From NCBI GenBank assembly GCA_035583355.1, contig DATEZQ010000001.1, positions 10,566 to 74,565 of the forward strand: a stretch of DNA of 64,000 nucleotides, given 5' to 3'. The DNA comes from Minisyncoccota bacterium (GTDB taxonomy: Bacteria > Patescibacteriota > Minisyncoccia > Phycocordibacterales > UBA6899). A program made the position numbers and the translations under genes. The notes beneath the pieces were generated by a model. The model saw only the letters and a program-made list of their open reading frames with translations. It had not been told where the DNA came from and ran no database searches. Positions 16,994 through 63,369 of the stretch are shown piece by piece. Within the stretch, counting starts at the first letter, position 1. Each line of letters opens with the position of its first letter.

Positions 16994-17126
16994 AAATCCC
17001 AATAACAGTACAACATACGATACGACCCGTTATCCGTATTTGGGATAAGACGAATCGACGCGCAAAGCCTCGATCACGCATCATGTCTATTTTCCGAATC
17101 GCCTAATCCATTAACATCAGAAAACC

Positions 17127-17468: not shown

Positions 17469-17474
17469 TCCTCT

Positions 17475-30269: not shown

Positions 30270-30341
30270 TGACCCTACAGAGAATCGAACTCTGATTTAA
30301 GGCTTGAGAAGCCTCCGTCCTAACCGTTAGACGATAGGGCC
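30270..30341 (-). tRNA. tRNA-Glu (anticodon CUC)
   Basis: Manual cloverleaf of GGCCCTATCGTCTAACGGTTAGGACGGAGGCTTCTCAAGCCTTAAATCAGAGTTCGATTCTCTGTAGGGTCA. 7-bp acceptor, D and T arms, anticodon loop TTCTCAA. CCA is not encoded. Confidence 0.8.
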
Positions 30342-48113: not shown

Positions 48114-49331
48114 ATGCAAAAATATCTCAACGACCGTTTCGGTATCACGTTTCCTGTGTTCATTCTCTCTGTGGTGAGTTTTTTGAATGACGTCGCAACG
48201 GATATGATCTATCCAATCATTCCAATCTTCCTTACTCAAGTCATTGGTGCCCCAGTACAAGTACTCGGACTTATCGAAGGAGTTGCAGAGTCTACCGCAA
48301 GCTTTCTCAAGGTAGCCGCAGGTGTCATTTCTGATAAGCTTGAGCGACGCAAGCCATTTGTAGTCCTTGGTTATGTCCTCTCTGCTACCGCAAAGCTCTT
48401 CTTTGGATTCGCATACTCTTGGCATGCTGTTCTCGGTGGAAAATTCGCAGATAGGCTGGGGAAGGGAACGCGTACTTCGGCGCGTGATGCATTTATCGCG
48501 GAGAATTCAGCACCCAAGGATAGAGGAGTGGTCTTTGGTTTTCATCGTGGTATGGATACACTCGGAGCGGTCTTTGGTCCACTTATTGGAATCGTGTTAC
48601 TCTCGTATTTTCCAAATAACTTCCGTGAGATATTCCTCTTCTCGCTCATTCCAACCGTTTTCGCAATTGCACTCCTTATTATTTTCATCAAGGAGAAAGA
48701 GAAGGCTCCTGATACGATTCGTGTGACGATTCCTCTCCGCATCATGGTGAAGAATCTTTCGTATCCATTTTTTGCATTTCTTTTGGTGAGTGCGATGTTC
48801 GCGATCGGTAATAGCTCTGACGCATTTCTGATTTTGAAAGCGAATAATCTCGGCTATTCTCTGGTCATGGTGGTTGCACTCTTTGCCACATTCAATTTCA
48901 CGTATGCACTACTCTCGGTGCCTGCAGGTATTGTGGCGGACAAGGTGGGGCCAAGAAATATCATGATTGTCGGCTTTCTGGTGTTTGGCATCATTTACCT
49001 TCTTTTTGGCTATGTACAAACGCCAGCACTGCTCTGGGTACTCTTTCCACTCTATGGGGTCTATATGGCCTTTACAGATGGCGTAGGGAAGGCCTACATA
49101 TCGAATATTATCCCGCATGAGCAGTTGGGTACCGCATATGGTATCCATCAGACGGTTGTCGGCTTCTGCGCATTCTTCGCTTCGATTATCGCCGGTTTCC
49201 TCTGGGCGAATGTGAGTTCATCCGCACCATTCATCTTTGGTGGATCGCTCGCAATTGCCGCAGCAGTACTCTTTCTCTTCGTGGGCCCAAAGGGGAAAGT
49301 CGTTATTGAGGCTCATCATCACGCATCATAA
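48114..49331 (+). CDS. MFS transporter
   Basis: 12 predicted TM helices and an MFS-like GxLaDrxGrR loop (GGKFADRLGKGTR). Confidence 0.85.
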   Translation: MQKYLNDRFGITFPVFILSVVSFLNDVATDMIYPIIPIFLTQVIGAPVQVLGLIEGVAESTASFLKVAAGVISDKLERRKPFVVLGYVLSATAKLFFGFAYSWHAVLGGKFADRLGKGTRTSARDAFIAENSAPKDRGVVFGFHRGMDTLGAVFGPLIGIVLLSYFPNNFREIFLFSLIPTVFAIALLIIFIKEKEKAPDTIRVTIPLRIMVKNLSYPFFAFLLVSAMFAIGNSSDAFLILKANNLGYSLVMVVALFATFNFTYALLSVPAGIVADKVGPRNIMIVGFLVFGIIYLLFGYVQTPALLWVLFPLYGVYMAFTDGVGKAYISNIIPHEQLGTAYGIHQTVVGFCAFFASIIAGFLWANVSSSAPFIFGGSLAIAAAVLFLFVGPKGKVVIEAHHHAS

Positions 49332-49336
49332 ATACC

Positions 49337-49777
49337 ATGAAATACACCGAATATCTCCAGTCGCTTGATCATGATAAGTGCCCGTTCTGTGATCCGGGGC
49401 AGCGTGTCTATCGCAAGAATGATGCTGCATATCTCACGTACGCGCTTGCGCCGTATCATCGCCATCATCTACTCATCATACCGAATCGCCACGTGCTCTC
49501 TCTGCTCGAAATGAGTGACGAGGAGAGTGCGCAGCTCTGGCACCTCATTAAGGAGGGTATGCAAACGATGCGTAGTCTTGGATATGAGAATCTCTCAGTG
49601 CTCGTACGCGAGGGGGAGGTGGGTGCGATTAAGTCTGTTGCGCATCTGCATTACCACATCATCCCGAATCATCGTATTGGTGACCTCGACATCAATGGCG
49701 AGGCGCGCAAGATATTAACTGAAGAGGAAGTGGAGGCGATAAGCAATGAGTTGCTTGCCGTCATGCCACAAGATTAA
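49337..49777 (+). CDS. HIT-family (histidine triad) protein
   Basis: HLHYHII histidine triad. Confidence 0.8.
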   Translation: MKYTEYLQSLDHDKCPFCDPGQRVYRKNDAAYLTYALAPYHRHHLLIIPNRHVLSLLEMSDEESAQLWHLIKEGMQTMRSLGYENLSVLVREGEVGAIKSVAHLHYHIIPNHRIGDLDINGEARKILTEEEVEAISNELLAVMPQD

Positions 49778-49814
49778 AAATAGCCACAAGGCTGTTTTTT
49801 GTTATACTGGACAT

Positions 49815-50579
49815 ATGAAAAAGCGAGCAGTTATCGTGACAGGCGGAGGTCGGGGTTTGGGGCGTATTATCGCGGAGCGCCTCGTTGAGAGCCTTAACGT
49901 CTTCATCGTCGGCCGTACGGAATCCGATCTAAGAGACACCTGCTCAGCTCTAAAGGCAAAAGGCCATGAAGCAGCATATTTTGTCGGGGATGTTTCTCTG
50001 CCTACTACTGCAGACAATGCTATTGCAGCACTCGAGGAACTCGGTTGGGATATTGCTGCGCTTGTCTGTAATGCAGGTATAGGGAAGAGCAGGCCGACCC
50101 ATGAGCTAGAGAATGCAGAGTGGCAACATATTCTTGATGTAAATCTCAACGGAAGTTTCTATTTCAGTAAAGCAGTATTGCCACTGATGAAAGAGCAGAA
50201 GTCGGGAGTACTCTGTTTCATCAGTAGTATCGCAGGAGTGCGAGGATATGCATATGAGGCTGCGTATGCCGCAAGCAAGCATGCAGTTGTTGGCTTAGCA
50301 AAAAGTATTGCAGCAGAGTATGGCAAGCATGGTATTGTGTCCGTTGCGCTCTGTCCGAATTTCATTGACGGTGAGATGACGGAGCGCACGATAAATGGAC
50401 TCGCGCAGCGACGTGGCATAACTGCACAGGAAGCGAGGGAAGTCATCGAGCAAGCGAATCCACAGAAGCGCATCATTCCACCGGAGGAAGTTGCGGAAAT
50501 GGTCGCCAATATTTGTACGAATAAAGTTCCATTGCTAAGTGGCACTGCGATAGTTATGGGAGGTGGAGGAGAACTATGA
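49815..50579 (+). CDS. SDR-family oxidoreductase
   Basis: TGGGRGLG cofactor motif and YxxxK (YAASK). Confidence 0.85.
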   Translation: MKKRAVIVTGGGRGLGRIIAERLVESLNVFIVGRTESDLRDTCSALKAKGHEAAYFVGDVSLPTTADNAIAALEELGWDIAALVCNAGIGKSRPTHELENAEWQHILDVNLNGSFYFSKAVLPLMKEQKSGVLCFISSIAGVRGYAYEAAYAASKHAVVGLAKSIAAEYGKHGIVSVALCPNFIDGEMTERTINGLAQRRGITAQEAREVIEQANPQKRIIPPEEVAEMVANICTNKVPLLSGTAIVMGGGGEL

Positions 50580-51241
50580 ACAAACAAAAAACAATTGACA
50601 CCCTGATTGCGTGGCTCGCAGAAAAAATTCCCGCAGGTGGCGGGATTCTTGTGCCAGTGAGCGGAGGCTCTGATAGCGCACTGAGTTTTTGGTTGAGCGC
50701 TCAGAAGTTAAAGGCACAGACGAAGGCAGTGTATATTGGCGAGAACCTGCGAAATAAAGAATGGTTTGATATGCTCGGAGCTGTCTCACTCGATACTGTT
50801 GATTTTGGGAAGAATAATCCTGAGGTGGGGAGATGGGCATATTTCCTCACACTCTGCCTCGAAGAGAATCGCGTGCTCGTCGGCTCTCGTAATCGCACCG
50901 AGATGTACTTGGGGACCTTTAGCAATGCGAGCCGCGTTTCCGCGCTGCTTCCACTTGCGGGTCTGTGGAAGAGCGAAGTGATGGAGCTCTGCAAATATGT
51001 TGGTGTGCCTGAAGATATTATTATATCGAGCAACCGTGCAGATCCTGAATGTGGACGCCCTGAAACGATGGCGGATATTTCACATGATGTCGTGGACCGA
51101 TTCTTGCAGACAAAACTCGGGCTTCCTGTGGGTGAGGGACTCTGTGAACCTACCGAAGCACAGCGCGCATATCTTGAGACGGTATATATGCAGAATCGAC
51201 ATAAGGCGCAGCTTCCATTCATAGGTCCCGAGGCAATATAG
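50576..51241 (+). CDS. nadE: NAD+ synthetase-like PP-loop ATPase
   Basis: PP-loop SGGSDS and GSRNRTEMYLGTFS resemble the NadE nucleotide-binding blocks. Confidence 0.65.
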   Translation: MNKQKTIDTLIAWLAEKIPAGGGILVPVSGGSDSALSFWLSAQKLKAQTKAVYIGENLRNKEWFDMLGAVSLDTVDFGKNNPEVGRWAYFLTLCLEENRVLVGSRNRTEMYLGTFSNASRVSALLPLAGLWKSEVMELCKYVGVPEDIIISSNRADPECGRPETMADISHDVVDRFLQTKLGLPVGEGLCEPTEAQRAYLETVYMQNRHKAQLPFIGPEAI

Positions 51242-51261
51242 TGCTTGAGCGAGTTGAAATC

Positions 51262-51286
51262 AAAAACAGCCAAGAGGCTGTTTTTG
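51262..51286. terminator. terminator hairpin aaaacagccaagaggctgttttt (a member of a related hairpin family)
   Basis: Near-identical copies at 51821-51844 and 49778-49801. Confidence 0.65.
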
Positions 51287-51288
51287 AT

Positions 51289-51771
51289 TTAGAATACGCA
51301 ATATGCGCGGGCGACACCTGCAGGCGTCGGAGTACGATAGGTGAGGTGTGGGTATATCGTAGTTTCTGTCGAAAAATAGATGGTATAGAGCGATGTCGTC
51401 GAGCAACCCGCATTTGCGTCAACCGGTGTCGGATCATAGGCATAGTAGAACGAGCCAGTGTTGATCGGATCAATCGGCAATTTGGGGATGTAGCTCTTGA
51501 GCTCATTCTCAAGAATATTCCACCCTAGTGTTGGTTCATGACTGCGCACTCGGTTGCTGCCGTCTGCGGTTGTGGTCGTTGGATACTTTGCGTTGGTGTC
51601 GAAGTAGAGTTCAAGCGCTCTTTGGAACTGGTTTATATCGCTGATACGTCGTGCGTCTCTCGACTTTGCACGTGCAGTAGATAGCGAGGCAAGTACAACG
51701 CTCGAGAGGAGAGCAATGATTGCAATAACCACAAGAAGTTCGATGAGGGTGAAGCCTTTCTGCTGTTTCAT
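51289..51771 (-). CDS. type IV pilin / pseudopilin (prepilin-type N-terminal methylation domain)
   Basis: KGFTLIELLVVIAIIALL prepilin signature after a short leader. Confidence 0.8.
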   Translation of the reverse strand: MKQQKGFTLIELLVVIAIIALLSSVVLASLSTARAKSRDARRISDINQFQRALELYFDTNAKYPTTTTADGSNRVRSHEPTLGWNILENELKSYIPKLPIDPINTGSFYYAYDPTPVDANAGCSTTSLYTIYFSTETTIYPHLTYRTPTPAGVARAYCVF

Positions 51772-51842
51772 GTATAAAGTATAGCATGGAGAAGAGTGCA
51801 TCTGGAAAGAAGATGGGGAAAGAAAAACAGCCGAGAGGCTGT

Positions 51843-52274
51843 TTATTTATTGAAACGATAGATAATGAATATACCCGTAAAGACGACTGCAGCTCCGATA
51901 AGCGTTGGGAGATTCACTTTGCTCTTAAAGAAAAGATAGCTAAATAGTGCAATGAAGATGGGGTAGGAGATTTCGATCAGGCCTGCGAGTGTTGCGCTCT
52001 TTGCAGTGATGGAATAACCAATGAAGAGTTCGGCGATAAGGAGGGAAATGATGCCTCCTGCAACATAGCCTAATAGCTGACGAGAAGAGGCAATTTGCTT
52101 TATATCCTCGACAAAATTGCCCGAGGAGAGCGATAAGATGGTTGTGATTGCAAAGACTACAAAAGAGGCGAGTGCGAGTGAGGTGAGCACCGAGATCTTC
52201 TTGTAAGCCTGCTCATTGAATACATACGTAATACCCCAGAAAGTCGATGCGCCCAGCGCGTAATATAGCCACAT
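51843..52274 (-). CDS. small DMT/EamA-like membrane protein
   Basis: Four TM helices, 143 aa. Confidence 0.4.
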   Translation of the reverse strand: MWLYYALGASTFWGITYVFNEQAYKKISVLTSLALASFVVFAITTILSLSSGNFVEDIKQIASSRQLLGYVAGGIISLLIAELFIGYSITAKSATLAGLIEISYPIFIALFSYLFFKSKVNLPTLIGAAVVFTGIFIIYRFNK

Positions 52275-52413
52275 AAGTATATTCTAACATGGGGAAGAAA
52301 GTCGAAAGTAAAAAATGAATAATTATACAAGAGTCTAGTAATCTTATTATATTTGTGATATAACAGGACAGTTCAAATAGAATTTAAAGGCAGGAACTGC
52401 TTAGATAATTGAA

Positions 52414-52596
52414 TATTACGGGATCGTCTAAAGGTAAGAATAGCCCTATGGGCACCAGGTATTCTTGCCCGATAGAGAGTCGCCACCGCGACCCTGATCA
52501 ACTCACGCCTTCGCAGGCTCAGTCGTTCACGGGTAGGAAAGAGGCCGGCCTCCGTCCGGCTCTCCGTAAGTATTGAATTGTTTTTAAATATAGTAT
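52414..52596 (+). repeat. partial duplication of the tRNA-Gln 5' region followed by a ~155-nt structured pseudo-tRNA-like segment
   Basis: tattacgggatcgtctaaaggta at 52414-52436 is identical to 52594-52616, the start of the true tRNA. The downstream part contains a T-arm-like GCCGG-CCTCCGT-CCGGC and CTCCGTA. Confidence 0.55.
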
Positions 52597-52667
52597 TACG
52601 GGATCGTCTAAAGGTAGGACAGAGGCCTTTGAAGCCTTTAATCTTGGTTCGATTCCAAGTCCCGTAG
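52597..52667 (+). tRNA. tRNA-Gln (anticodon UUG)
   Basis: Manual cloverleaf of TACGGGATCGTCTAAAGGTAGGACAGAGGCCTTTGAAGCCTTTAATCTTGGTTCGATTCCAAGTCCCGTAG. Anticodon loop CTTTGAA. CCA is not encoded. Confidence 0.8.
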
Positions 52668-52721
52668 CAATGGCCAAAAAGAACGCGAAAGCGTTCTTTT
52701 TGTTTGCCATTGCTAACGGGA
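52668..52721. terminator. bidirectional terminator at the centre of a ~43-bp-arm inverted repeat that includes the tRNA-Gln 3' end
   Basis: aaaaagaacgc-gaaa-gcgttcttttt. The arms extend through agcaatggcc/gccattgct to ttcgattccaagtcccgt on both sides. Confidence 0.65.
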
Positions 52722-52884
52722 CTTGGAATCGAACGGAGAGGGGTCGGGAGAGGAATACCTCTCCTGTGCAGGAAAGCAGGAGTCTTGTAGGCTCCGTCGA
52801 GAACCGTGGGTTCTTGAAGAGCTTTGCTGTGCGAGGCTCCTCTGGAGTGCGCACGCAAAGCGAGTGAGATATCCAAGCCCCATA
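52722..52884. ncRNA. candidate structured RNA/repeat element R2, paralog of 29921-30217
   Basis: Conserved blocks with R1 (see R1). Terminal helix GGGGCTTGG/CCAAGTCCC, or GGGACTTGG/CCAAGCCCC on the other strand. The termini copy the tRNA-Gln T-stem and acceptor. Confidence 0.4.
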
Positions 52885-53005
52885 GCAGTTTGAAGAAATT
52901 TCTGTTTCGGAACACGGCACATCAATGTAACACATTGATTAGTACAATTTTTACACTATGTGATACTATATGTGTATTTATGTAACTAATAATGAATTAA
53001 GTAAT

Positions 53006-54772
53006 ATGCAGCAAAAACAAGAATTCGCTTTGCGTAAACTAGAGGAAGAAATTTCCGCTAAGATCCTATCCGTTTCGCAGCAAGTCCGAACCGCAAGAAC
53101 AGCTGAACAGTTTTTTGATTTGACATGCGAGCTCTATGCAGTGGTTGAAAAGATGAAAAATGAGAATCTGCTCTGGGTCGGTAATAAAACAAATTACCCA
53201 GTTCTGTTTTTGAGTGCGGTATTGAGAAATGAGACGATTCAGAGAGAGTTGATAAGGGTTACTGAGGAGGAAGAAGGAATATATGATCAAGCCATCATCT
53301 CAAATACAAATCTTGAGTCCAAGCTATTAATACGAACATCATTACTGTTAGCATTCATGCCAATAGCAGTTGGGTTAGAATCTCTAGAGGAGGTGAATAT
53401 AGTTTTCTATAGAAAGGTTATAAATGATGCACTTAAGGAGGCCATCAGAAATTCGCAATCAAATATTTCTATAATTAGCGTCTGCTTTAAGATTGAAGGT
53501 ATTATAAAGACAAAAGATTATTTTCATGGAACATCTTCATTACTAATAGATGTTGGCGCTTTGTTCGAAGTATTAAAACTGTCAAGAATTTTATGTGGGA
53601 TATCGTCCGCGGCAATGCCAGTTACGCAAATATTGGCAGCACAGTTTTCCAAGTCAAATGAAAAAATTCTGTCATTTGAACTAAATTTGTCCGAAATCCT
53701 TTCAAGTGTTTATAGTTCAATTTTCAAAGTTAGTCGCAGTATTGAATATTATATAAACACTCCTGTTGACGAAAGCTCAATTCGTGAAGTTGGAAGGTAT
53801 AGTGATTTGTATCAAACTTCAAACGAAAAAAACCTAATTTTCTTTCTGGAAAAGATCTCTTCAGATTTTAACTTCCAAGAGGGTAGGAGATTTTATGAAG
53901 TAATGATCTCAAAAATTAGTTCAGCCGATTCTCTTCGACTTGAGTTGGTGGATTTTGCAACAAAACACCTTAGCGGATTCCGCGGTGATATAAGCGAGGA
54001 TCATGGTGAGTGGTCGAATAAGGTATTTATTACTTCCCTTAGACTTCTATCAGTTCTGTCTGTGATAAATTTAGCAAAAGATTCGAGATGGAAAGTGTCT
54101 ACGTCGGTTAGGGAGTATGTAAGATGGCTTGAGGAAGTTCATGGAATAATTAACAAATATTCTCTTGAGGATGACTGGTCTGCTATTTCTGATTTTGTTG
54201 ATGATGAAACGTCTGAGATTGAATGGAAGTCAACATTTTTTACACCAACAGAGCAAATGTATTCTTCTAAAGAATCAGATTCTTTAGTTAGTAGAAGTAT
54301 ATTTGGCAAAATATCAAAAACAGTATTGGGGATGATGAATACTTCAGGCGGAACTATTCTCGTTGGACTTGTAGAAAACCCGAAATTAATCATACGAGCT
54401 GATATTTCCGAGAAGTTAATATGCAAAAATGGAAAAACATTTTATGATGTCGGTTATGAACTAAGTCAGATTGGTAGGTCTCTTGATAGTGTTAGGCTTC
54501 AAATGCTTGAAAATTTGAAGAATATGACGGATGAGTCATCGGAAAAATTTAATGATCTTTTCACATTTATTCCTTTGCAAATTAAGTCGGGAGGCGCTTC
54601 GGTTACAATTGTAAAAATTCAGATTAAAAAAGGGGCTAGAAAGTTCTATTCAGTTAAAAAAGAAAATAATTCAGTTTGGATTTCTCTAGCAATGCGTGCT
54701 ATGGGGCAGACGATAGATGTAGATGTCAGGGATTACCTTCCTGAAGGAGATATAGAAAAGGCTCAGGATTAA
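53006..54772 (+). CDS. large hypothetical protein with Schlafen/AlbA_2-like domain, in an AT-rich island
   Basis: EIEWKSTFF...VLGMMNTSGGTILVGLVEN resembles the AlbA_2 (PF04326) signature. About 400 aa of N-terminal sequence has no known domain. Local GC is visibly lower than the flanks. ATG at 53006 is preferred over 52970. Confidence 0.55.
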   Translation: MQQKQEFALRKLEEEISAKILSVSQQVRTARTAEQFFDLTCELYAVVEKMKNENLLWVGNKTNYPVLFLSAVLRNETIQRELIRVTEEEEGIYDQAIISNTNLESKLLIRTSLLLAFMPIAVGLESLEEVNIVFYRKVINDALKEAIRNSQSNISIISVCFKIEGIIKTKDYFHGTSSLLIDVGALFEVLKLSRILCGISSAAMPVTQILAAQFSKSNEKILSFELNLSEILSSVYSSIFKVSRSIEYYINTPVDESSIREVGRYSDLYQTSNEKNLIFFLEKISSDFNFQEGRRFYEVMISKISSADSLRLELVDFATKHLSGFRGDISEDHGEWSNKVFITSLRLLSVLSVINLAKDSRWKVSTSVREYVRWLEEVHGIINKYSLEDDWSAISDFVDDETSEIEWKSTFFTPTEQMYSSKESDSLVSRSIFGKISKTVLGMMNTSGGTILVGLVENPKLIIRADISEKLICKNGKTFYDVGYELSQIGRSLDSVRLQMLENLKNMTDESSEKFNDLFTFIPLQIKSGGASVTIVKIQIKKGARKFYSVKKENNSVWISLAMRAMGQTIDVDVRDYLPEGDIEKAQD

Positions 54773-54807
54773 ATATTTATTATATTCGTGTTACAATTCG
54801 AAGCAAT

Positions 54808-55122
54808 ATGGCGATGATAAAATGCACAGAATGCGGAAGGGATATTTCAGACCAGGCGTCTACTTGTCCAGCTTGCGGCATACAACTAAAGGAGATCGCA
54901 GTAGAGACGACTAAACCTGTGACAATAGAGTTGACTAGTAAGAAGTGGAAGGTGATAAAGCTTTTTGCATGGCCAGCAGTGATTCTTGGTTTCCTTTGGT
55001 ATATATCAGGAATGCAACAACCTGTACCCCCAACTTCTTCAGGGGTTGGTGCAATGTTCCTCTTTTTTGGAATAATCGGATTAATAGTTGCAAAGCTTGG
55101 AGCTTGGTGGACAAATAAATAA
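54808..55122 (+). CDS. zinc-ribbon membrane protein (104 aa)
   Basis: CTECG...CPACG ribbon followed by two TM helices. Confidence 0.45.
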   Translation: MAMIKCTECGRDISDQASTCPACGIQLKEIAVETTKPVTIELTSKKWKVIKLFAWPAVILGFLWYISGMQQPVPPTSSGVGAMFLFFGIIGLIVAKLGAWWTNK

Positions 55123-55128
55123 TTTCTT

Positions 55129-55389
55129 ATGAAAACCCGCATTACCCTCATCTCCGCATTACTCCTCCTTCCAATGATTGCCTCAGCATTCACGCTTTCC
55201 GACGTGCAGAACTCTGACTTCTGGCCGGGATTCTGGCAGGGACTTACCTTACCATTCCGTCTCTTCTTGCGCTTCTTCATGCATGATCTCGTTATCTTCG
55301 AGCCCGCACGCGCTATCTGGTGGTACCACGTCGGATTCCTCGTAGGAGTCTTCGCAATCTTCACCGGAGGACATCATTCAGCAAAATAA
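55129..55389 (+). CDS. small secreted/membrane protein (86 aa)
   Basis: Signal peptide plus a TM helix. Confidence 0.4.
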   Translation: MKTRITLISALLLLPMIASAFTLSDVQNSDFWPGFWQGLTLPFRLFLRFFMHDLVIFEPARAIWWYHVGFLVGVFAIFTGGHHSAK

Positions 55390-55420
55390 AACATCGGCCA
55401 CTAGTGGCCGATGTGTTTTG
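55386..55420. terminator. bidirectional terminator
   Basis: aaaacatcggccactagtggccgatgtgtttt. Confidence 0.75.
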
Positions 55421-56074
55421 TTATTGCCGTGAGCTCACGGCCGCCGCGCATTCGTAGATGCGCATTTCATGCGGGGAAAGAGCGAAATCGTCGAGTGTGA
55501 GGCCAAGGTGTCCGAGCATTCTTGCTGTCTCTTTCTTGAGACCTCGTCCGAGATTTTCTTTCACGTAATGTTCGATGATGGAAGGCTGGATGGGGAGGAC
55601 TCCGAGGTTGGTAAATGCGTGAACCTCGGATTCCTCGATTCTGTTGCGGGACACGTGTCTTTCGAGGATATACTGCGCTTCTTCCTTGGTGAGTTCACGT
55701 CCGAGGTGGGCAGCATAGAGTTGTGCGTAGCGCAGTGACCCTGTCCCCACGGCCCAGACGAGGAGTTCTTTGTGGAAGCAGCGAGCTTCATTCCCAGAGT
55801 AGCGCTCAGCGAGGGTAATTATGCTCGCCCAATGCTTCCTCATGGAATCCTTGATGATCGTTCTTGCGATCTGCTCCATCTGTTGGGCAGGAAGTTTCAA
55901 CTCGAAGATGCGCTTGATCGCGAATTCGAAATTAAGCTTTGCGAGTCCAAGCATGAACATCGTCAGTATCGTGGTGAACACGAGATTCTCCTTGTGGTTA
56001 TCGTCTGGTCTCTTTATACAATATTCAAATATGATTGTCAAATATACTTTTTCGAGCCCACAAATATAAAACAC
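55421..56074 (-). CDS. hypothetical alpha-helical protein, downstream partner of the SLOG-like gene
   Basis: Coding-like. No family recognised. The start may be internal. Confidence 0.4.
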   Translation of the reverse strand: MFYICGLEKVYLTIIFEYCIKRPDDNHKENLVFTTILTMFMLGLAKLNFEFAIKRIFELKLPAQQMEQIARTIIKDSMRKHWASIITLAERYSGNEARCFHKELLVWAVGTGSLRYAQLYAAHLGRELTKEEAQYILERHVSRNRIEESEVHAFTNLGVLPIQPSIIEHYVKENLGRGLKKETARMLGHLGLTLDDFALSPHEMRIYECAAAVSSRQ

Positions 56075-56090
56075 CCCTCAGGGTGTTTTA

Positions 56091-56621
56091 TTATTCCGCG
56101 ATTGTATATTGCTTATGTAGCGTAATCGGTAATCCCGCAGCCTTTGCTTTATCAATCGTGTCTTGTGTTCCTGAACTCGCATTCACCTGGAATGCATAGA
56201 CTTCATCGGCAACCTTCACTTCACCGTCATGGCGAAGGTTATAGTGCTCCTGTGTAATTTCTCCATCCTCAGGGAGTGCATGCACATGCTCGGGCTTTGC
56301 GCGACGCAAAAGCTTGAGGCAAGTGGCAAGTTCATCAATTGATTCTTGTGTCACTGGCGCATGGCACCAATTCTCGCGATAGTCACGAATGTAGTTCTTG
56401 AGATTCGTGGGCAAGAATACTTGTAGCCTTTCGCCTGAAGGATCATACTCCATCGCTTCCGTCATGGCGAAATAATCAACACCCGTTGCTCCGCCAGTGA
56501 TGATGCCATCACCGCGTTCGAGTACTTCTTTGGCTGCATTACGAACATCCTCCTCAACCTGCTTATTGGTAAGTCTCCAAGTTCCCGTAAATAGTATCCA
56601 ATGCATATATTCAATATACAT
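56091..56621 (-). CDS. SLOG/DprA/LOG-like Rossmann-fold protein
   Basis: IITGGATGVDYFAMTEA resembles the GxAxGxDxxA motif of DprA/Smf/SLOG nucleotide-binding domains. I chose the internal ATG (MYIEYM) as the start. Confidence 0.4.
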   Translation of the reverse strand: MYIEYMHWILFTGTWRLTNKQVEEDVRNAAKEVLERGDGIITGGATGVDYFAMTEAMEYDPSGERLQVFLPTNLKNYIRDYRENWCHAPVTQESIDELATCLKLLRRAKPEHVHALPEDGEITQEHYNLRHDGEVKVADEVYAFQVNASSGTQDTIDKAKAAGLPITLHKQYTIAE

Positions 56622-56687
56622 GGTATGAGATAAAGCGCAAAATACAATTTTGTTGTATGAGTTGCAAAACTGTGCGATGATTGTCCT

Positions 56688-57011
56688 ATGTTTACTATCG
56701 AATTCCTGCGTCATTACCGTGTGCTTGGTTACGCCGTATTTGACCTCACCGTGTCATTCCTCGGTATGGCGCTCCTCGCACCCTTACTTTCGCGTATTAT
56801 GCGCAAGCTTGGCTTTATCGTTCCTATGGTGAACTGGGTCTGGATGACGCTGCCGATTGGCATCCTTACGCATCTCATTGTTGGCAGGATGACCCCGATG
56901 ACCGTACAATTTTTGAATCCAAATGGTGACTACGTGCTCAAAGCGATTGTCTTTGTTATGTTTGTCCTTGGGCTTGTGGGTATCAGGCGCGCAAAGCCTG
57001 TGATGCGATAA
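56688..57011 (+). CDS. small membrane protein (107 aa, hypothetical)
   Basis: Three TM helices. Confidence 0.4.
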   Translation: MFTIEFLRHYRVLGYAVFDLTVSFLGMALLAPLLSRIMRKLGFIVPMVNWVWMTLPIGILTHLIVGRMTPMTVQFLNPNGDYVLKAIVFVMFVLGLVGIRRAKPVMR

Positions 57012-57043
57012 AAGTGCGGTATTGTGCGTACTACATATACAAC

Positions 57044-57625
57044 ATGACCACTCCAATAGATTGCACACTGAACTCTGACGAGGAGCTCGTCACACTTGCA
57101 CTCCAGAACTCGGATTGGTTTTTCTGTCTCGCAAAGCGCTATGAGGAAAAGCTTGCGCGTTATATTGCGCGCATTTCAGGTGGTCACAAAGAAGATGTCG
57201 AAGACACACTGCAAGATGTTTTTGTGAAAACATATCAAAACTTGAACAGTTTTGATACACGACTCAAATTCTCTTCATGGATCTATCGCATTGCGCACAA
57301 TGAATCAATAAGCGCAATGCGCAAGCGTTCCGTGCGTCCCGTGGTGCACCTCGAGGATGAAGACATGCAGAAGTTCGCTGGAACACTCGATATTGAGAAG
57401 GATATCAATAATATCTTCGATAGAGAGATCATCAACAGCATCTTGGCACTTATGGATCAGAAGTATGCTGAAGTACTCACACTTCGTTATCTCGAAGAGA
57501 AGGATTACATCGAGATAGCCGATATTCTCCAGAAGCCGATAAGTACGGTGGGGAATCTCATTAGCCGCGGAAAGAAGTTGTTTAAGGTCGAATATGAAAA
57601 TATAACTAACGAAAAACATGGATAA
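57044..57625 (+). CDS. ECF-type RNA polymerase sigma factor
   Basis: Region 2 (FSSWIYRIAHNESISAMRKR) and region 4 HTH (DYIEIADILQKPISTVGNLISRG). Confidence 0.8.
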   Translation: MTTPIDCTLNSDEELVTLALQNSDWFFCLAKRYEEKLARYIARISGGHKEDVEDTLQDVFVKTYQNLNSFDTRLKFSSWIYRIAHNESISAMRKRSVRPVVHLEDEDMQKFAGTLDIEKDINNIFDREIINSILALMDQKYAEVLTLRYLEEKDYIEIADILQKPISTVGNLISRGKKLFKVEYENITNEKHG

Positions 57626-58382
57626 GGATATTGCAAAGAGCGCAATGGAGCGCATAAAGAAACTCGGCATCACTCCTGAGTCAAAGGCCACGGTTATGCT
57701 CCGCAGACTCAAGTTTTGGGCACCGACAATGATTGCAGGAGCTCTTGCTGCGGTTGCAATAGCTGCAATCTATTTTAATTTAGATGGGAATGATTGGGAT
57801 CTTTTTCCAAGGCTTGGCTTCGGATTCATACTGCACTCAGTGCCATATTTCTGGATTGTAGCCTTCGTTATCCTGGTAGTGCTTGGCGACTTCTACTACG
57901 GGAAGACCGAGGTTGGCTATCGTTACAGTTTCGTACGTATTGCGGGGATATTCATACTCGTCACGATGCTCTTCGGTAGCCTCCTCATGTATATGGGTGC
58001 GGGCCGTATTTTCCAACGCTCTATTCGTGGAGGAGGTGGAGTGCTCCAGAATATGATGTTCCAGCAGACTGAAGTCTGGTCACATCCTGAGCAGGGGTTA
58101 CTCGCAGGGACGATACGTTCTGTTGCTGCAACAAGTTTTGAACTTACAGATTTTGAAAATAAAGTTTGGGCTATTGATATGACTAATGCGTTGGTGCGCA
58201 GTAGGGTACAGCTTGTGCCGGGGACATTGGTAAAGATTATTGGGCAAGCGGCTGGTGATCAATTTATAGCCAGTGAAGTCCGTCCGTGGATGGGTCAGGG
58301 AATGATGAATGGTAGCGGGGTTCACGGAGGTATGTTTGGTGGTGCAGTAGGTGGCGCAGGGAGGAAGGGGATGATGCGATAA
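57618..58382 (+). CDS. membrane protein co-transcribed with the ECF sigma (putative anti-sigma-like), Gly/Met-rich C-terminus
   Basis: Overlaps the sigma stop. Four TM helices. The C-terminus is GQGMMNGSGVHGGMFGGAVGGAGRKGMM. Confidence 0.45.
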   Translation: MDKDIAKSAMERIKKLGITPESKATVMLRRLKFWAPTMIAGALAAVAIAAIYFNLDGNDWDLFPRLGFGFILHSVPYFWIVAFVILVVLGDFYYGKTEVGYRYSFVRIAGIFILVTMLFGSLLMYMGAGRIFQRSIRGGGGVLQNMMFQQTEVWSHPEQGLLAGTIRSVAATSFELTDFENKVWAIDMTNALVRSRVQLVPGTLVKIIGQAAGDQFIASEVRPWMGQGMMNGSGVHGGMFGGAVGGAGRKGMMR

Positions 58383-58440
58383 ATTTGTTTTTGATGCGTA
58401 TTAATAGGTGAAGGCCTTAATTAATATAACTTCAATTACA

Positions 58441-58815
58441 ATGAACAAGAAGATCATTACTGCAGGAGTTGCCACGCTTATCTTGGCAGCAGCTGCATCA
58501 ACTGCATTTGCTTATCAGGGTGACGCTACAAAGCGTGGTCCTAATTACTCGCCAGAGCGCCACACTGCAATGACCGCAGCAATCACAAGCGGTAATTACG
58601 ACGCTTGGAAGCAGCTCCATACTGCAGGTACTCGCGTATCAACAGTTATTACCAAGGACAACTTCCCAAAGTTCGTAGAGATGTGGAAGCTTGAGCAGGC
58701 AGGAAAGACTGCAGAGGCTAAGGTCATCAGGCAGCAGCTCGGTCTTGGTATGGGCGCAGGCATGGCAAATGGCCGTGGTCAAGGAATGGGTCGCGGAATG
58801 CATCGTGGTTTCTAG
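58441..58815 (+). CDS. secreted protein with Gly/Met-rich C-terminus
   Basis: Signal peptide MNKKIITAGVATLILAAAASTAFA. The C-terminus is GLGMGAGMANGRGQGMGRGMHRGF. Confidence 0.5.
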   Translation: MNKKIITAGVATLILAAAASTAFAYQGDATKRGPNYSPERHTAMTAAITSGNYDAWKQLHTAGTRVSTVITKDNFPKFVEMWKLEQAGKTAEAKVIRQQLGLGMGAGMANGRGQGMGRGMHRGF

Positions 58816-58835
58816 GCAAATTAACACCCCATAAA

Positions 58836-58866
58836 GAACATACATAACGTATGTTCTTTGTTGTTT
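58836..58866 (+). terminator. intrinsic terminator
   Basis: aagaacatac-ataa-cgtatgttctt plus a T-run. Confidence 0.7.
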
Positions 58867-58889
58867 ACAGATTTAGTTCTTTGGTGTAT

Positions 58890-58911
58890 CATTCAAATGT
58901 ACATTTGAATG
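58890..58911. promoter_or_regulatory. 22-nt perfect palindrome (operator-like) upstream of the rhodanese gene
   Basis: cattcaaatgt|acatttgaatg. Confidence 0.5.
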
Positions 58912-58954
58912 TAATTTGCACGGTAATGGCAAATATTCAGGCAGTTATTAATAT

Positions 58955-59383
58955 TTGAGCTATATGGCAAAGAAAGAGACCAAAGACACAAAGTTCTATG
59001 TGGGGATTGGTATAACCCTTCTACTTCTTATTGCATTGTTCGTGTTTTTCCCAACACAGCGAATGCAATTGTCGGGCAGTGAATTCATGCAGACGTTTAG
59101 TAAGACAAGCGATGCGGTCTTGCTTGATGTGCGCACGCCGACTGAGTTCGCTGCAGGACACATTGATCAAGCGATCAACGTCGACTACGAGGATGCAACA
59201 TTTGAGTCCGAGATCAAGAAACTTGATCCCTCGAAGACATATTTTGTTTACTGTCGCTCTGGTAACAGGTCGGGAAAGTCCATCACTATTATGAGAGCAA
59301 ATGGATTTCAGCATATTTACGAACTTGCAGGAGGAGTCGTAAGTAGTAAAGATTCGATAAAATTGATTCCTTTGAGTATTTAA
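58955..59383 (+). CDS. rhodanese-domain protein (membrane-anchored)
   Basis: LLDVRTPTEFAAGHI and the active-site CRSGNRS. Confidence 0.8.
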   Translation: MSYMAKKETKDTKFYVGIGITLLLLIALFVFFPTQRMQLSGSEFMQTFSKTSDAVLLDVRTPTEFAAGHIDQAINVDYEDATFESEIKKLDPSKTYFVYCRSGNRSGKSITIMRANGFQHIYELAGGVVSSKDSIKLIPLSI

Positions 59384-59415
59384 GGTTAGTTATTAAGAAA
59401 AATACAAACAACAAT

Positions 59416-59763
59416 ATGTTATATACAAACTTGCATCATATTACGAGCGTTGCGGAGTACCAGAAGGTATTGAGCGAGAACGAGAACGTTATGATTATCT
59501 GTGGACGCATGGGTCCTATGTGTATTCCTGTCTATGGCATCGCCGAGGAGCTCGAGCAGCAGTTCACTCATGTGAAATTCTGTGACTTCGAATTCGATAC
59601 TCCCGCAGCGGATGTTATTCGTGATCTTCCTGAGGTGCAGGGCTTCATGGGTATTCCATTCACGATCTATTACAAGAATGGCAAGGTGGTTAAGGCAACT
59701 TCAAGCATCCAGACGAAGGGTCAGGTAACCGCAATCCTCGAAAAGGAGTTCGGCACAAAGTAG
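59416..59763 (+). CDS. thioredoxin-fold protein with atypical CGRMGPMC active-site region
   Basis: Trx-like length and pattern. Not the canonical WCGPC. Confidence 0.55.
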   Translation: MLYTNLHHITSVAEYQKVLSENENVMIICGRMGPMCIPVYGIAEELEQQFTHVKFCDFEFDTPAADVIRDLPEVQGFMGIPFTIYYKNGKVVKATSSIQTKGQVTAILEKEFGTK

Positions 59764-59768
59764 TACTT

Positions 59769-60704
59769 GTGAAGACTATGGAAAATCATTATGACACTAT
59801 AATTTTGGGAGGCGGACCTGCGGGGCTTACTGCAGGAATCTATCTCTCAAGGGCAAAGCTAAAGACGCTCATTATTAATGAGGGTACTATTGGTGGGCAA
59901 ATGATTTTGACGCATGAAATCGCAAACTATCCCGGAGTGGAAAAGACGAGCGGATATCTGCTTGCCCGGACAATGCAGAAGCAGGCGGAATCATTCGGCA
60001 GCACAATACTTTCGAACAAAACTGTTCGAAGTTTTGTGCTTGATGGTGCACTAAAAGAAGTAATGCTTGATGACGGTATGCGATATACCGCACAAAGTAT
60101 TATCTTTGCGCAAGGCGGGAGATCGCGAACTCTTGGAGTTCCAGGCGAAGAAGAATTGAAGGGTAAGGGAATATCATACTGCGCTACATGTGATGGCGAT
60201 TTCTTTACCGGCAAAGAAATCATTGTGGTCGGCGGAGGGAATTCAGCGCTCGAGGAAGCGGTCTCATTGACGAAGTATGCCAAGAAGGTGACCATTGTGC
60301 ATAAGCTCGGACAGTTCGATGCACACAAGCATGCGATAGAGGAGGCAGAACAGCATCCAAAGGTTGATTTTCTCATGAAGTCTGCAGTAGTCGCCTTTCA
60401 TGGGGCAGAGAAGCTTGAAAGTGTTGATATAAAAAATTTGGAAACGAATGAGGTGGTCAATAGAAAAACTGATGGAGTATTCATATTCATCGGCTATATA
60501 CCAAATACTGAGACACTCATGGGTGTGCTTGATTTGAACCAGGCAGGTGAGATAATGGTTGGAGCGGAGATGGAGACAAGTTTGCCCGGAGTGTTTGCAG
60601 CAGGAGATAGTACACAAAAGCGCTATCGCCAGATTACTACAGCAGTCGCTGATGGTACGATTGCTGCACTTGCTGCTGCTGACTATGTCGAACGCATCAA
60701 ATAA
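59769..60704 (+). CDS. trxB: thioredoxin-disulfide reductase
   Basis: FAD GGGPAGLTAG, redox-active CATCDG and NADPH GGGNSALEEA. Confidence 0.9.
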   Translation: MKTMENHYDTIILGGGPAGLTAGIYLSRAKLKTLIINEGTIGGQMILTHEIANYPGVEKTSGYLLARTMQKQAESFGSTILSNKTVRSFVLDGALKEVMLDDGMRYTAQSIIFAQGGRSRTLGVPGEEELKGKGISYCATCDGDFFTGKEIIVVGGGNSALEEAVSLTKYAKKVTIVHKLGQFDAHKHAIEEAEQHPKVDFLMKSAVVAFHGAEKLESVDIKNLETNEVVNRKTDGVFIFIGYIPNTETLMGVLDLNQAGEIMVGAEMETSLPGVFAAGDSTQKRYRQITTAVADGTIAALAAADYVERIK

Positions 60705-60725
60705 TTATTCGATAACATTGTTATC

Positions 60726-61628
60726 ATGAATTTCTCAAAAAATGTCGGAAAGTGGGATAAGAAAGTGCGCATCGTACTTGCAGTAGTATTTGGCTTAGTT
60801 GCTTTTTACTGGGTCTCTGGGGCATTCGCAGTGCTCTTTTGGGCTCTTGCAGCAGTAATGCTCATTACCGCTATTACAGGCTTTTGTGGGCTCTATAAGC
60901 TCATTGGAGTGAGTACGTTTGTACCAGAGGAAAAATGTCCTGCAGTCCCTGTACGCATTGCATTTGTAGTCTTTGTGCTTGCGCTGCTCACGGTGGGCGG
61001 CTACTATAGCAATTTCTTTACGAAGAAGTTCTATCTTGAGGATTTCAATCGTATGAATAATTTCTACAAGCAGACGCTTTTCTTTACGGGGCAAGAGAAA
61101 CGCGCTGAGGCGGTAGAGAATTACCAGAAGCTGATAATGGCATACGCACCTTTCAGCGCGAAATATCAGTCGTACCATCCTTATGCATTGCGTGGTGATG
61201 GACAGCTCAATAGTGACCTCATTAGGGTGGGGCAAATCATTGCGTCGGTGAACGATAAGGTGAATACTGGTGATCTTAAGGCAGCACATACTGATCTGGA
61301 GCAAGTGCGTCCAGTATTCCAAGAAATCTTTAAGCGCAATAACTTCTCTATGCTTGCAGTAACGCTTGTGGATTTCCATGATGCGATGGAGAAGATACTG
61401 ACTCCTGCGACGGAAAAGAATATAGAGGGTACGCTTGCGGTCTACGGGGAGGTAAGCGAAAAACTCAAAGCCGTTGAGGCTGAAGCGAATGATACAGAGA
61501 TTCAATCGATTCGCCTAAGACTCGATGAGCTCTATCTTCTTGCACAGAAGGGAGAAGCAGCAAAGCTTCCTGAAAAGGGCAATGAGCTTAAGTCAGCATT
61601 TGTAAAAGTGTATCTCGTGCGTGGATAG
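60726..61628 (+). CDS. membrane protein with N-terminal DUF2892-like (YgaP-type) domain
   Basis: NVGKWDKKVRIVLAVVFG...ITGFCGLYKLIGVST matches DUF2892, a domain often linked to rhodanese. Confidence 0.5.
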   Translation: MNFSKNVGKWDKKVRIVLAVVFGLVAFYWVSGAFAVLFWALAAVMLITAITGFCGLYKLIGVSTFVPEEKCPAVPVRIAFVVFVLALLTVGGYYSNFFTKKFYLEDFNRMNNFYKQTLFFTGQEKRAEAVENYQKLIMAYAPFSAKYQSYHPYALRGDGQLNSDLIRVGQIIASVNDKVNTGDLKAAHTDLEQVRPVFQEIFKRNNFSMLAVTLVDFHDAMEKILTPATEKNIEGTLAVYGEVSEKLKAVEAEANDTEIQSIRLRLDELYLLAQKGEAAKLPEKGNELKSAFVKVYLVRG

Positions 61629-61701
61629 TGCTAAAGGAAAACACCCGAGTGTGGTATCGCGGGTGTTTTTTGTTGTCTCGTGCTCGTGTTATGCTTTATT
61701 A

Positions 61702-62343
61702 ATGAGTTTAGGTACGATCCTTATTCTTATTGTGCTTGCTGGCTACGTCAGTAACTGGCTGAACTGGCGCTATCTTAATTACCGCCTCACGCACTACCTC
61801 TATTATATTGGGGCTTTTGTGCATGAGTCATCACATGCACTTTTGTGCTTGTTAACCTTTGCAAAAATCGAAGAGTTCGTTGTGTTCTCTGAGCAGCCCC
61901 ACGTTGCGTATCATAAATCAAAGATTCCGTTCATTGGGAATATGCTCATTTCCTCAGCACCGGTCTTTGGTGGATTACTTTTCCTCTTTTTGCTCAATCA
62001 TTTTGTTTTTGGAAGTTTTTTCACGCCGGTCGTTCCTGACGCAGACACTCGCAGCATATTGATGGCACCACTCTCGCTTTTGCTACAACTCGACGTCTTC
62101 CACTGGCAGAGCTATGCCATGTTGCTCCTGTTGTTAAACGTTGGTGCTATGATCGGTCCATCTATTCAGGACATGAAGAATATGTGGTTCTTGCTTATTC
62201 TACTCTTTTTTGTCGAGATTCCTGAGTTTATGACCTTTGGGCTTGTTGCCCTCGGTCTCATTCTTGCAAATATTCTGCTGCAGATTTTACTTATCTTCAC
62301 TATTTGGTTTGGAGGGAGATGTATCGCACGTATCAGGGGCTAG
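61702..62343 (+). CDS. polytopic membrane protein with HExxH motif (putative metallopeptidase-like)
   Basis: VHESSHALL within or next to a TM helix. I chose the start after the terminator hairpin at 61641-61672. Confidence 0.4.
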   Translation: MSLGTILILIVLAGYVSNWLNWRYLNYRLTHYLYYIGAFVHESSHALLCLLTFAKIEEFVVFSEQPHVAYHKSKIPFIGNMLISSAPVFGGLLFLFLLNHFVFGSFFTPVVPDADTRSILMAPLSLLLQLDVFHWQSYAMLLLLLNVGAMIGPSIQDMKNMWFLLILLFFVEIPEFMTFGLVALGLILANILLQILLIFTIWFGGRCIARIRG

Positions 62344-62365
62344 TGTTATAATCACTCTATACGCT

Positions 62366-62785
62366 ATGAAAAAGCCAATTCCTGCACGTTATTTGCTCGT
62401 TGTGCGTCTCTTCATTGGACTACTTTTGGGTATCCTCGCATATCTTGCGCTTATTCTTGCTGCGCAGTACCACTATATCGCGCGCGAACAAATGGTGCAT
62501 GGCAAGCGGATGCAGATATCGAATTTCCGCAGACAGCACGCTCTTACTGTTGAGGATATTTCACTTATTGAGCCTTGGATGACATTTGATTACATTGCTA
62601 CGGTATTTCGAATTCCGTCTAGTTATATCAAGACGACACTCAATATCGCCGATCCAAGATTTCCTCGAATCACGCTTCATAGATATGCAAAGATCAACAG
62701 GCTCAGCGAGCGTGAGTTTACGCTTGCTGTTATCGATACTGTAGGGAAGTATTTTGTGGAAACGAGTACGGAAGCTAAGGAATAG
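62366..62785 (+). CDS. hypothetical membrane-anchored protein (139 aa)
   Basis: One TM helix. Internal ATG (MKKPIP) chosen as start. Confidence 0.4.
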   Translation: MKKPIPARYLLVVRLFIGLLLGILAYLALILAAQYHYIAREQMVHGKRMQISNFRRQHALTVEDISLIEPWMTFDYIATVFRIPSSYIKTTLNIADPRFPRITLHRYAKINRLSEREFTLAVIDTVGKYFVETSTEAKE

Positions 62786-62790
62786 AAACA

Positions 62791-63369
62791 ATGGATTACG
62801 TACTCTCCATACTACTTTCTTACCTGCTGCTTTACAAATATGTGACGTTATTCATCGTCATGTATGTTGCAGGTTTGCTTATCCCATTTCCTATTAACAC
62901 GCTGGTATTTGCGGCCGGCGTATTTGCAAGCCAAGGATTTTTGAATCTTTGGGCTTCCTTTGGGGTTGCAATATTGGGTAATGTACTTGGGGATTACACT
63001 GGTTATATGCTTACTGCGATATGGAAGCACCGCTACATCAAGCGCAGTCATCTCGAAAAGATCCCTTATCTCCCAAAGCTTGAGGCCTATCTCCGGGAGT
63101 ATGCGGGGCTCACGGTCTTTTTCTCGCGCTTCCTTGGTATTGCAGGGTGTACGGTGAACTTCCTCTCGGGGCTTGCAGGTGTCCCTATGAAGCGTTTTCT
63201 TACGTTCGATATACTCGGCAATGCATTTTCCGCAGGTATCTTCCTCTTTGGAGGTTATATACTCGGAACATTCACTGAGACATTCTCCGATAGCATGAGT
63301 CTCATTGGTCTCATGATTTCGCTCACATTTATTATCATTGTTGTGCTTAAATCAATACAGAGGAAGTAA
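62791..63369 (+). CDS. DedA/VTT-family membrane protein
   Basis: GNVLGDYTGYML and the overall DedA pattern. Confidence 0.75.
   Translation: MDYVLSILLSYLLLYKYVTLFIVMYVAGLLIPFPINTLVFAAGVFASQGFLNLWASFGVAILGNVLGDYTGYMLTAIWKHRYIKRSHLEKIPYLPKLEAYLREYAGLTVFFSRFLGIAGCTVNFLSGLAGVPMKRFLTFDILGNAFSAGIFLFGGYILGTFTETFSDSMSLIGLMISLTFIIIVVLKSIQRK

Follow-up and report, generated by a model that had tools for sequence, protein, structure and literature searches.

The window, i.e., the whole 64,000-nucleotide stretch of DNA analysed here, carries close to a tRNA-Gln a gene that probably encodes a single-polypeptide immune nuclease of the prokaryotic Schlafen (pSlfn) type. In its product, a C-terminal AlbA_2/Schlafen domain is fused to an N-terminal helical module, and the gene is part of a 2.26-kb segment that is absent from sister genomes. 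Coordinates are given in Table 1.

The ORF listing of the window reports the reading frame at 52970-54772 (+) with 600 aa. Starting instead from the ATG at 53006 yields a 588-aa version, such that the ATG at 52970 is an alternative start. The product is identical to HXK37501.1 (VJ579_00320) from a Candidatus Paceibacterota MAG, which is labelled "hypothetical protein" at NCBI and uses the 588-aa start. The initial annotation had thus named the 588-aa ORF correctly, and both peptides it quoted (EIEWKSTFF and SKTVLGMMNTSGGTILVGLVEN) are found in the translation. Its promoter (TTTACA...TATATG) does not hold up, since the spacer has only 11 nt and a sigma-70 scan missed it; TTTACA-17 nt-TGTATT is a weak alternative. 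The PADLOC check it had proposed was run and matched no known defence system: within PADLOC-DB v2 there was no significant match, and the sole hit (JetB, E 0.008 over 49 residues) is spurious. An NCBIfam scan of the protein returned nothing informative.

Table 1. Features in and around the Schlafen gene (positions refer to the window; aa, amino acids).
Feature	Position	Strand	Evidence
tRNA-Gln (anticodon UUG)	52597..52668	+	ARAGORN; Rfam tRNA, 62 bits; 95% identical in L024
Palindrome of ~97 nt: tRNA 3' arm (52642-52665) and its inverted copy (52716-52739) around a terminator-like hairpin	52642..52739	+	inverted-repeat search
GC-rich structured spacer, part of the "tRNA-trailer unit"	52718..52870	+	blastn vs. 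L024 (76% over 157 nt) and vs. window 30207-29946
Window-specific inserted or replaced segment, 2.26 kb	52871..55128	.	blastn and tblastx of L024 and L026 vs. window; junction alignments
Att-like degenerate direct copy of the tRNA-Gln 3' end, TCCAAGCCCCATAGCA vs. TCCAAGTCCCGTAGCA (14/16)	52872..52887	+	mismatch scan; L024 alignment
pSlfn-family gene, 588 aa plus stop codon	53006..54772	+	
All-alpha N-terminal module (residues 1 to ~398), putative sensor or regulator; EWSNK motif, invariant K339	53006..54199	+	
C-terminal AlbA_2/Schlafen nuclease domain, putative (residues ~399-588)	54200..54769	+	
Codons of the predicted catalytic motif E401-T-S-E-I-E406-W-K408 (Ex4ExK)	54206..54229	+	77-relative alignment
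Codons of N445-T-S-G-G-T-I-L-V-G-L-V-E457, Schlafen "NTxGG...G-[LV]-x-[ED]" motif	54338..54376	+	alignment; SLFN12, SLFN14
Co-inserted small gene, 104 aa, N-terminal zinc ribbon and hydrophobic C-terminal half	54808..55122	+	Pfam Zn_Ribbon_1, E 1.4e-5

First, we consider the C-terminal domain. The protein itself matches PF04326 with 24.0 bits (E 5.8e-5), i.e., 1.3 bits under the gathering threshold of 25.3 bits. Among its relatives, 10/11 match the same family at E<=0.01 (best 7.3e-7), and precomputed PF04326 matches exist on two relatives. Beyond the family, an exhaustive HMM search based on its profile yields distant matches, which are limited to profile positions ~380-550; all six of those tested contain PF04326, five with 30.7-52 bits and one with exactly 25.3 bits. 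When the profile is trimmed to the C-terminal domain and compared to PDB sequences, SLFN12 (E 1e-4) and SLFN14 (E 6e-3) are found. This trimming is needed, as the full-length profile reaches SLFN12 at E 0.11 only. The AlbA_2/Schlafen-like domain proposed by the initial annotation is therefore supported, and the profile comparisons make the assignment solid at the level of the family.

An AlphaFold2 model computed from 77 relatives is of very high confidence (pLDDT 94, pTM 0.86) and shows the AlbA_2/Schlafen fold in its C-terminal domain. A Foldseek search of the full-length model against the PDB gives no match at E<=0.001, where the helical domain swamps the ranking; the probability values alone pointed to SLFN13 and SLFN14. 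The Schlafen lobe contains an insert of ~50 aa (residues ~459-510) that is specific to the family.

The residues expected for catalysis are nearly invariant. E401 and K408 are found in 77/77 relatives and E406 in 76/77. The second motif shows the same pattern, i.e., N445 is present in all 77 and E457 in 76 of them, while G448, G449 and G454 show no variation apart from W-for-G mistranslations. D494, which lies in the insert and is invariant, and R564 are conserved among the 77 relatives as well. Aligning the pattern NTxGG-x4-G-[LV]-x-[ED] with SLFN12 and SLFN14 suggests that E457 takes the position of the third Schlafen carboxylate. The cleavage of tRNA by SLFN11 depends on the Ex4ExK motif, and in sSLFN11 none of E204, E209 and K211 is dispensable (PMC10359600). 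The bacterial CbCash uses the triad E17/D22/K24, which has Mg2+ bound and is needed for tRNA cleavage (PMC13462974), and 5,930 prokaryotic Schlafens share Ex4(E/D)xK as their signature (PMC13056530).

Residues 1 to ~398 form a distinct all-helical domain in the model, that is, the Schlafen domain is fused to a separate putative sensor domain. K339 is conserved among the 77 relatives in this part. The first ~400 aa had been described as matching nothing known, which still stands, and the helical module as modelled has no structural relative. Neither a helicase nor a P-loop match was found in the protein, which consists of a single AlbA_2 lobe and is helical otherwise.

The module is not tied to one effector. 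In four cluster representatives (P0087, P0090, P0095, P0101), the match to the family profile is confined to positions 8-399 (E 1e-25 to 1e-39), and the EWSNK and W...W motifs are retained. Their Schlafen domain is replaced by a sequence with I-F-V-E-G-x-S-D ... G-I-Y-D-F-D, i.e., by a Toprim domain of the OLD/GajA/AriB defence type.

Given this architecture, the following mode of action can be proposed. The C-terminal domain would act as a metal-dependent endoribonuclease, most likely on tRNA, with E401/E406/K408 as its motif and E457 close by. This nuclease may be kept off until the N-terminal ~400-aa helical module senses a signal of phage or mobile-element invasion. It would probably be switched on by homo-oligomerisation, as the protein has a single AlbA_2 lobe and the RNA clamp of Schlafens requires two. 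Depletion of tRNA would then arrest translation and reduce phage production.

Next, we turn to the distribution of the family and its genomic neighbourhoods. The 560-630-aa architecture recurs in about 90 clusters (at 50% identity), and the family carries no annotation beyond "hypothetical". Where a host is named, it belongs to the Paceibacterota, other Patescibacteria, Saccharibacteria or Parachlamydiales, with one uncultured Gammaproteobacterium in addition. In 7-8 members, W occurs at otherwise invariant glycines, which points to hosts that read UGA as Gly (genetic code 25, Gracilibacteria/Absconditabacteria). All family members come from MAGs, and no homologue was found in viral contigs, annotated phages or plasmids. 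Duplicate contigs aside, no neighbouring gene is shared between the ~15 loci, which suggests that the gene works alone.

Defence genes are located within ~2 kb of the family gene at 5 of ~14 distinct loci. These are a complete DUF4297-HerA system (locus L003; PADLOC E 1e-36 and 2e-242), a type I restriction-modification (RM) S subunit together with a MazF toxin (L004), a type II methyltransferase (L005), and complete type II RM pairs at both L017 and L022. In the window, the Schlafen gene is surrounded by the zinc-ribbon gene, small membrane genes and unknowns, with no defence genes among them. The zinc-ribbon gene lies inside the window-specific segment; we rejected it as a functional partner since no homologue is found beside the family gene at other loci. 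The initial annotation had called the gene a defence candidate, which gains support from the neighbours at the five loci as well as from bacterial Schlafen nucleases, established as anti-phage tRNases only in 2026 (PMC13056530, PMC13462974).

The same data can be read differently. A Schlafen-type RNase might serve a non-immune role, either by cleaving tRNA or rRNA under stress or starvation or as the toxin of an addiction module that retains the islet. An intact catalytic motif and a solitary gene without conserved partner would fit this, 9 of the ~14 loci have no recognisable defence neighbour, and at one locus (L002) the gene follows dnaK-dnaJ at a distance of 23 bp. Furthermore, some pSlfn genes without defence neighbours are possibly non-immune (PMC13056530). 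On the other hand, the patchy distribution and the absence from sister genomes argue against a housekeeping function, the N-terminal module is also paired with the OLD/GajA/AriB-type Toprim, and RM and DUF4297-HerA genes are among the neighbours at the five loci. The addiction variant is further at odds with the lack of any conserved antitoxin-like small gene alongside the family gene. We thus regard a non-immune RNase as a possible but rather unlikely alternative to the immune nuclease.

The protein could also be a non-catalytic nucleic-acid binder, e.g., a regulator or chromatin-like factor whose AlbA_2 domain only binds DNA or RNA. This we judge very improbable. The lysine of Ex4ExK, which is missing from RNase-inactive Schlafens (PMC10359600), is here retained by every relative, a Pfam scan of the protein finds no HTH or other DNA-binding domain, and the Toprim nuclease that is swapped in among relatives implies a nuclease at the C-terminal position.

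A shade less probable again is a symbiosis or host-interaction factor, by which episymbiotic or intracellular bacteria (CPR, Parachlamydiales) would act on a host cell or on competitors. The identified hosts agree with it to the extent that Patescibacteria and Parachlamydiales are symbiotic, next to the one uncultured Gammaproteobacterium, and so do the code 25 hosts suggested by the W-for-G columns. However, no signal peptide or transmembrane segment is seen in the protein (N-terminus MQQKQEFALRKLEEE..., by inspection and from the all-helical model), no secretion-system genes are adjacent to the gene, and the RM and HerA neighbours point to an intracellular conflict over nucleic acids. An immune nuclease thus stays our preferred reading.

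We then compared the base composition of the gene with that of its surroundings. The GC content of the ORF is 35.8%, compared to 46.9 +- 1.7% in windows of the same length elsewhere (z -6.5), and the drop has sharp edges at ~52,900 and ~54,800. No other of the 52 ORF proxies in the window is as low in GC3 (0.307) or in GC1 (0.423) (z -2.9 each); GC2 deviates mildly (z -1.3), and the synonymous-codon divergence of the ORF ranks 4th of 52. The composition drop seen by the initial annotation is therefore real. It is also not restricted to this locus: at 18/20 other sampled loci (four duplicate contig pairs counted in), the family gene is AT-richer than its flanks.

Two related genomes allow the segment to be delimited. 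The closer one, L024, is a 131-kb groundwater contig with a 92%-identical homologue of a flanking protein. It is collinear with the window at ~80% nucleotide identity over 48627-49803, 51259-51787, the tRNA-Gln, the spacer at 52718-52870, an 86-aa gene from ~55128 and 56063-63369. L024 has no counterpart of 52871-55128 and carries HAD-hydrolase and TrmO genes there instead. The more distant relative L026 lacks the gene, too, and its flanks are collinear. Horizontal acquisition, as suggested by the initial annotation, is thus well supported: the gene is neither conserved nor syntenic, is absent from two relatives with collinear flanks, and deviates in composition. All three outcomes that the initial annotation had named as refuting its reading were checked, and none was observed. 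An ordinary, vertically inherited gene with a low GC content due to its amino-acid composition, and no island, would agree with the mild GC2 deviation and with the lack of both an integrase in neighbouring ORFs and a right-hand att repeat within 50,001-60,000, but it conflicts with the lowest GC3 of 52 ORFs, the different genes at the exact place in the sister genome and the missing synteny across family loci, and is effectively excluded by the comparison with L024 and L026.

To the left of the segment lie the tRNA-Gln(UUG), which is on the same strand as the Schlafen gene, and the DNA 3' of it. L024 keeps this tRNA although it lacks the Schlafen gene; the tRNA-Gln is a resident housekeeping tRNA that marks a hotspot. 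A perfect 12-bp hairpin (52675-52702) follows the tRNA, and the palindrome region has an RNA fold z of -12.5. The initial annotation had placed the gene directly downstream of tRNA and terminator. While the hairpin is indeed present, "directly downstream" is not correct, as a 300-bp GC-rich (~0.5) and strongly structured spacer lies in between. An 86%-identical copy of the spacer is found in the same window 3' of a tRNA-Glu (30207-30119). Rfam has no family for the spacer, with only hairpin-like miRNA noise matches. The arrangement as a whole, termed tRNA-trailer unit, comprises the tRNA 3' arm, the hairpin, the inverted arm copy, the structured spacer that the units share and a tRNA 3'-end copy in direct orientation.

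Homology to L024 ends at 52870, and the window-specific DNA begins with the degenerate tRNA copy TCCAAGCCCCATAGCA. A right-hand copy of the tRNA 3' end was not found at >=14/20 within 50,001-60,000, and there is no integrase or recombinase gene in the 2.26-kb segment or among ten neighbouring ORFs; it is for this part of the window that the initial annotation's statement of a missing integrase holds. We discounted a direct repeat of 20 nt (52344 and 54777; 17/20), as an estimated 2-3 such pairs occur by chance in this AT-rich stretch.

In L024, the 3' end of the tRNA-Gln is the exact insertion site of a ~6-kb element that encodes a Rep and a large serine recombinase and has a displaced, degenerate tRNA 3' end at its far side. 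The tRNA-Gln is thus a working integration site in this lineage. At loci L003 and L008, the family gene is found 40-330 bp 3' of a tRNA-Gln and on the same strand. In L003, two copies of a 168-nt unit, 98.8% identical to each other and beginning within the tRNA 3' end, bracket a 6-kb segment with the family gene and DUF4297-HerA. The three tRNA-Gln-linked members (including L003 and L008) belong to one subclade of the tree. We therefore dropped the idea of three independent hits and explain the linkage by a single event or two, or by a preference of this clade. Taken together, the gene was probably transferred horizontally into this genome, with the distal end of the tRNA-Gln trailer as the recombination hotspot that received it.

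The segment resembles tRNA-linked islands in its proximity to a tRNA, its atypical composition, its absence from sister genomes and the degenerate tRNA 3' copy at its left junction, with a serine-recombinase element at the same tRNA-Gln in L024. It differs from them by its size of only 2.26 kb, by the absence of a nearby integrase and of a detected right-hand repeat, and by the position of its cargo, which adjoins the distal end of the structured trailer unit instead of the tRNA itself.

The family is of interest for several reasons. With regard to the sensors of bacterial Schlafen nucleases, it offers a compact, confidently modelled and sensor-like module without structural relative. The use of one module with either a Schlafen or a Toprim nuclease constitutes a natural effector swap. 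To our knowledge, the immune repertoires of CPR and chlamydial bacteria are barely charted; their genomes are tiny and keep few accessory genes. In addition, the clean sister-genome comparison presents the tRNA-Gln trailer as a hotspot for the exchange of cargo in Paceibacterota. One could go further and take the ~400-aa module as a new class of infection sensor that drives Schlafen or OLD/AriB-type Toprim effectors in ultra-small symbionts, and at the same time the tRNA-trailer units as cassette-exchange recombination sites that move defence genes of Paceibacterota; that both should hold jointly we consider unlikely.

Finally, we compared the protein with known systems. Among the anti-phage pSlfn proteins (e.g., RorSlfn5; Perez Taboada et al., Nat Microbiol 2026; PMC13056530), 17% have fused domains of no Pfam or ECOD homology, and 558 clusters with unannotated domains are reported among prokaryotic Schlafens (PMC13056530). 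The present protein belongs to this class. As for RorSlfn5-type pSlfns, a single gene combines an AlbA_2/Schlafen domain with Ex4(E/D)xK and a fused, presumably phage-sensing domain; pSlfn genes are often found near other defence genes, the present family at 5 of ~14 loci. In contrast, the Schlafen domain is C-terminal here, and the partner is the N-terminal ~400-aa all-helical module rather than an Ig-like, HisKinase, HTH, DUF5929 or DUF262 domain. The survey was also based on RefSeq complete genomes (PMC13056530), whereas the present family occurs only in MAGs of uncultured lineages.

The CRISPR-associated Schlafen Cash (Weickert et al., Nat Commun 2026; PMC13462974) cleaves tRNA in the T-loop and anticodon-loop and is activated via oligomerisation. 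Like the present protein, it is bacterial and has one Schlafen lobe with an E-x4-[DE]-x-K triad. In Cash, however, the nuclease is N-terminal and followed by a C-terminal Csx15 cA4 sensor, and the gene is found in type III CRISPR loci, while the present protein has neither a Rossmann-like sensor nor a CRISPR association. The same work lists seven defence-linked Schlafen clusters (PMC13462974), none of which, as described in its section 11, matches the present architecture.

Mammalian Schlafens (SLFN11/12/13/14) and the AlbA_2 domain of SAMD9 show a sequence identity of only 10-15% to the protein. Mammalian Schlafens fuse two AlbA_2-like lobes, followed by a linker (SWADL) and, in some, a helicase domain; the present protein has a single C-terminal lobe with the ~50-aa family-specific insert and no helicase. 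With respect to the Toprim nucleases of OLD, Gabija (GajA), PARIS (AriB) and retron Eco2, the protein of the window itself has no Toprim domain, and the partner ATPases of OLD, GajA and AriA are absent. Prokaryotic Schlafens with a variety of fused sensors are already known; what appears to be new is the reversed domain order, the helical module without structural relative, and the sharing of this module with Toprim effectors.

Coordinates of the features discussed here are collected in the following table.

Features around the islet and at tRNA loci of related contigs
Feature	Sequence	Position	tRNA
tRNA-trailer unit	window	52642-52887	tRNA-Gln
tRNA-trailer unit	window	29946-30290	tRNA-Glu
tRNA-trailer unit	L003	1825-2034	
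tRNA-trailer unit	L003	7494-7793	
Further indels vs. L024	window	49804-51258, 51790-52590	
Partial 5'-half copy	window	52417-52440	tRNA-Gln
Copy plus GC-rich stretch	window	52417-52586	tRNA-Gln
Block shared with L026	window	52412-52670	tRNA-Gln
GC-rich palindrome	window	55383-55422	
Segment without L024 counterpart	window	55394-56062	
217-aa ORF	window	55421-56074 (-)	
Integrated element	L024	about 12,440-18,480	tRNA-Gln
Region with duplicated unit	L003	7494-13819	tRNA-Gln(CUG)
Split family gene, two ORFs	L015	391-1269, 1311-2180 (overall 391-2180)	

Because the SDR, NAD-synthase-like and EamA transporter genes, at the further indels of the table, have no counterpart in L024, the collinear contig of a sister genome, the ~7-kb stretch around the islet (the AT-rich, window-specific segment with the pSlfn-family gene) is a mosaic of lineage-specific segments. 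The 217-aa ORF is a second indel adjoining the islet, of different composition, since it too is missing from L024, where window 55394-56062 is without counterpart. The ORF itself has a high GC content (about 0.53) and no match in Pfam, and it ranks second in the window for synonymous-codon divergence.

The 86-aa and 217-aa genes converge on a GC-rich palindrome with perfect pairing over 10 bp (ACATCGGCCACTAGTGGCCGATGT); it has T-runs on either strand and looks like a bidirectional terminator.

On the upstream side of tRNA-Gln, we observe a partial direct copy of its 5' half (22/24), separated from the intact gene by a 146-nt GC-rich stretch. The block including tRNA-Gln, taken as a whole, shows 83% identity in the distant relative L026 but has no counterpart in L024, although the latter is closer.

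Downstream, a 'tRNA-trailer unit' recurs in two Paceibacterota genomes, i.e., that of the window and that of L003, a contig with a family member. Each unit comprises the tRNA 3' arm, a terminator-like hairpin, an inverted 3'-arm copy, a GC-rich spacer and, in direct orientation, a degenerate copy of the tRNA 3' end. Each inverted arm copies the 3' arm of its own tRNA (tRNA-Glu 18/18, tRNA-Gln 92%). The palindrome arms co-vary with their tRNA; the spacer is common to different tRNAs within one genome (Gln vs. Glu 86% identity over 89 nt). The RNA fold is extremely stable (z -12.5); Rfam holds no family for the unit.

The orthologous tRNA-Gln 3' end in L024 is the site of an integrated ~6-kb element, which codes for a Rep of the rolling-circle type (REP_ORF2-G2P/RepSA) and for a large serine recombinase of 488 aa and has a degenerate, displaced tRNA 3' end on its far side. 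In L003, a 168-nt unit starting within the tRNA-Gln(CUG) 3' end is present twice (98.8% identity); the copies enclose a ~6-kb defence segment, in which the pSlfn-family gene lies together with an M23 peptidase gene and a complete DUF4297-HerA system.

Another family gene, on metagenome contig L015, appears split in two ORFs, perhaps because a frameshift has made it a pseudogene or because the assembly is faulty there. Finally, 7-8 members of the family alignment show W in the otherwise invariant glycine columns of the Schlafen motif (G448, G449, G454), e.g., NTNWW or IIIW. This is the signature of UGA=Gly genes (genetic code 25) read with UGA=Trp and points to a family range that includes the code 25 lineages Gracilibacteria/Absconditabacteria.
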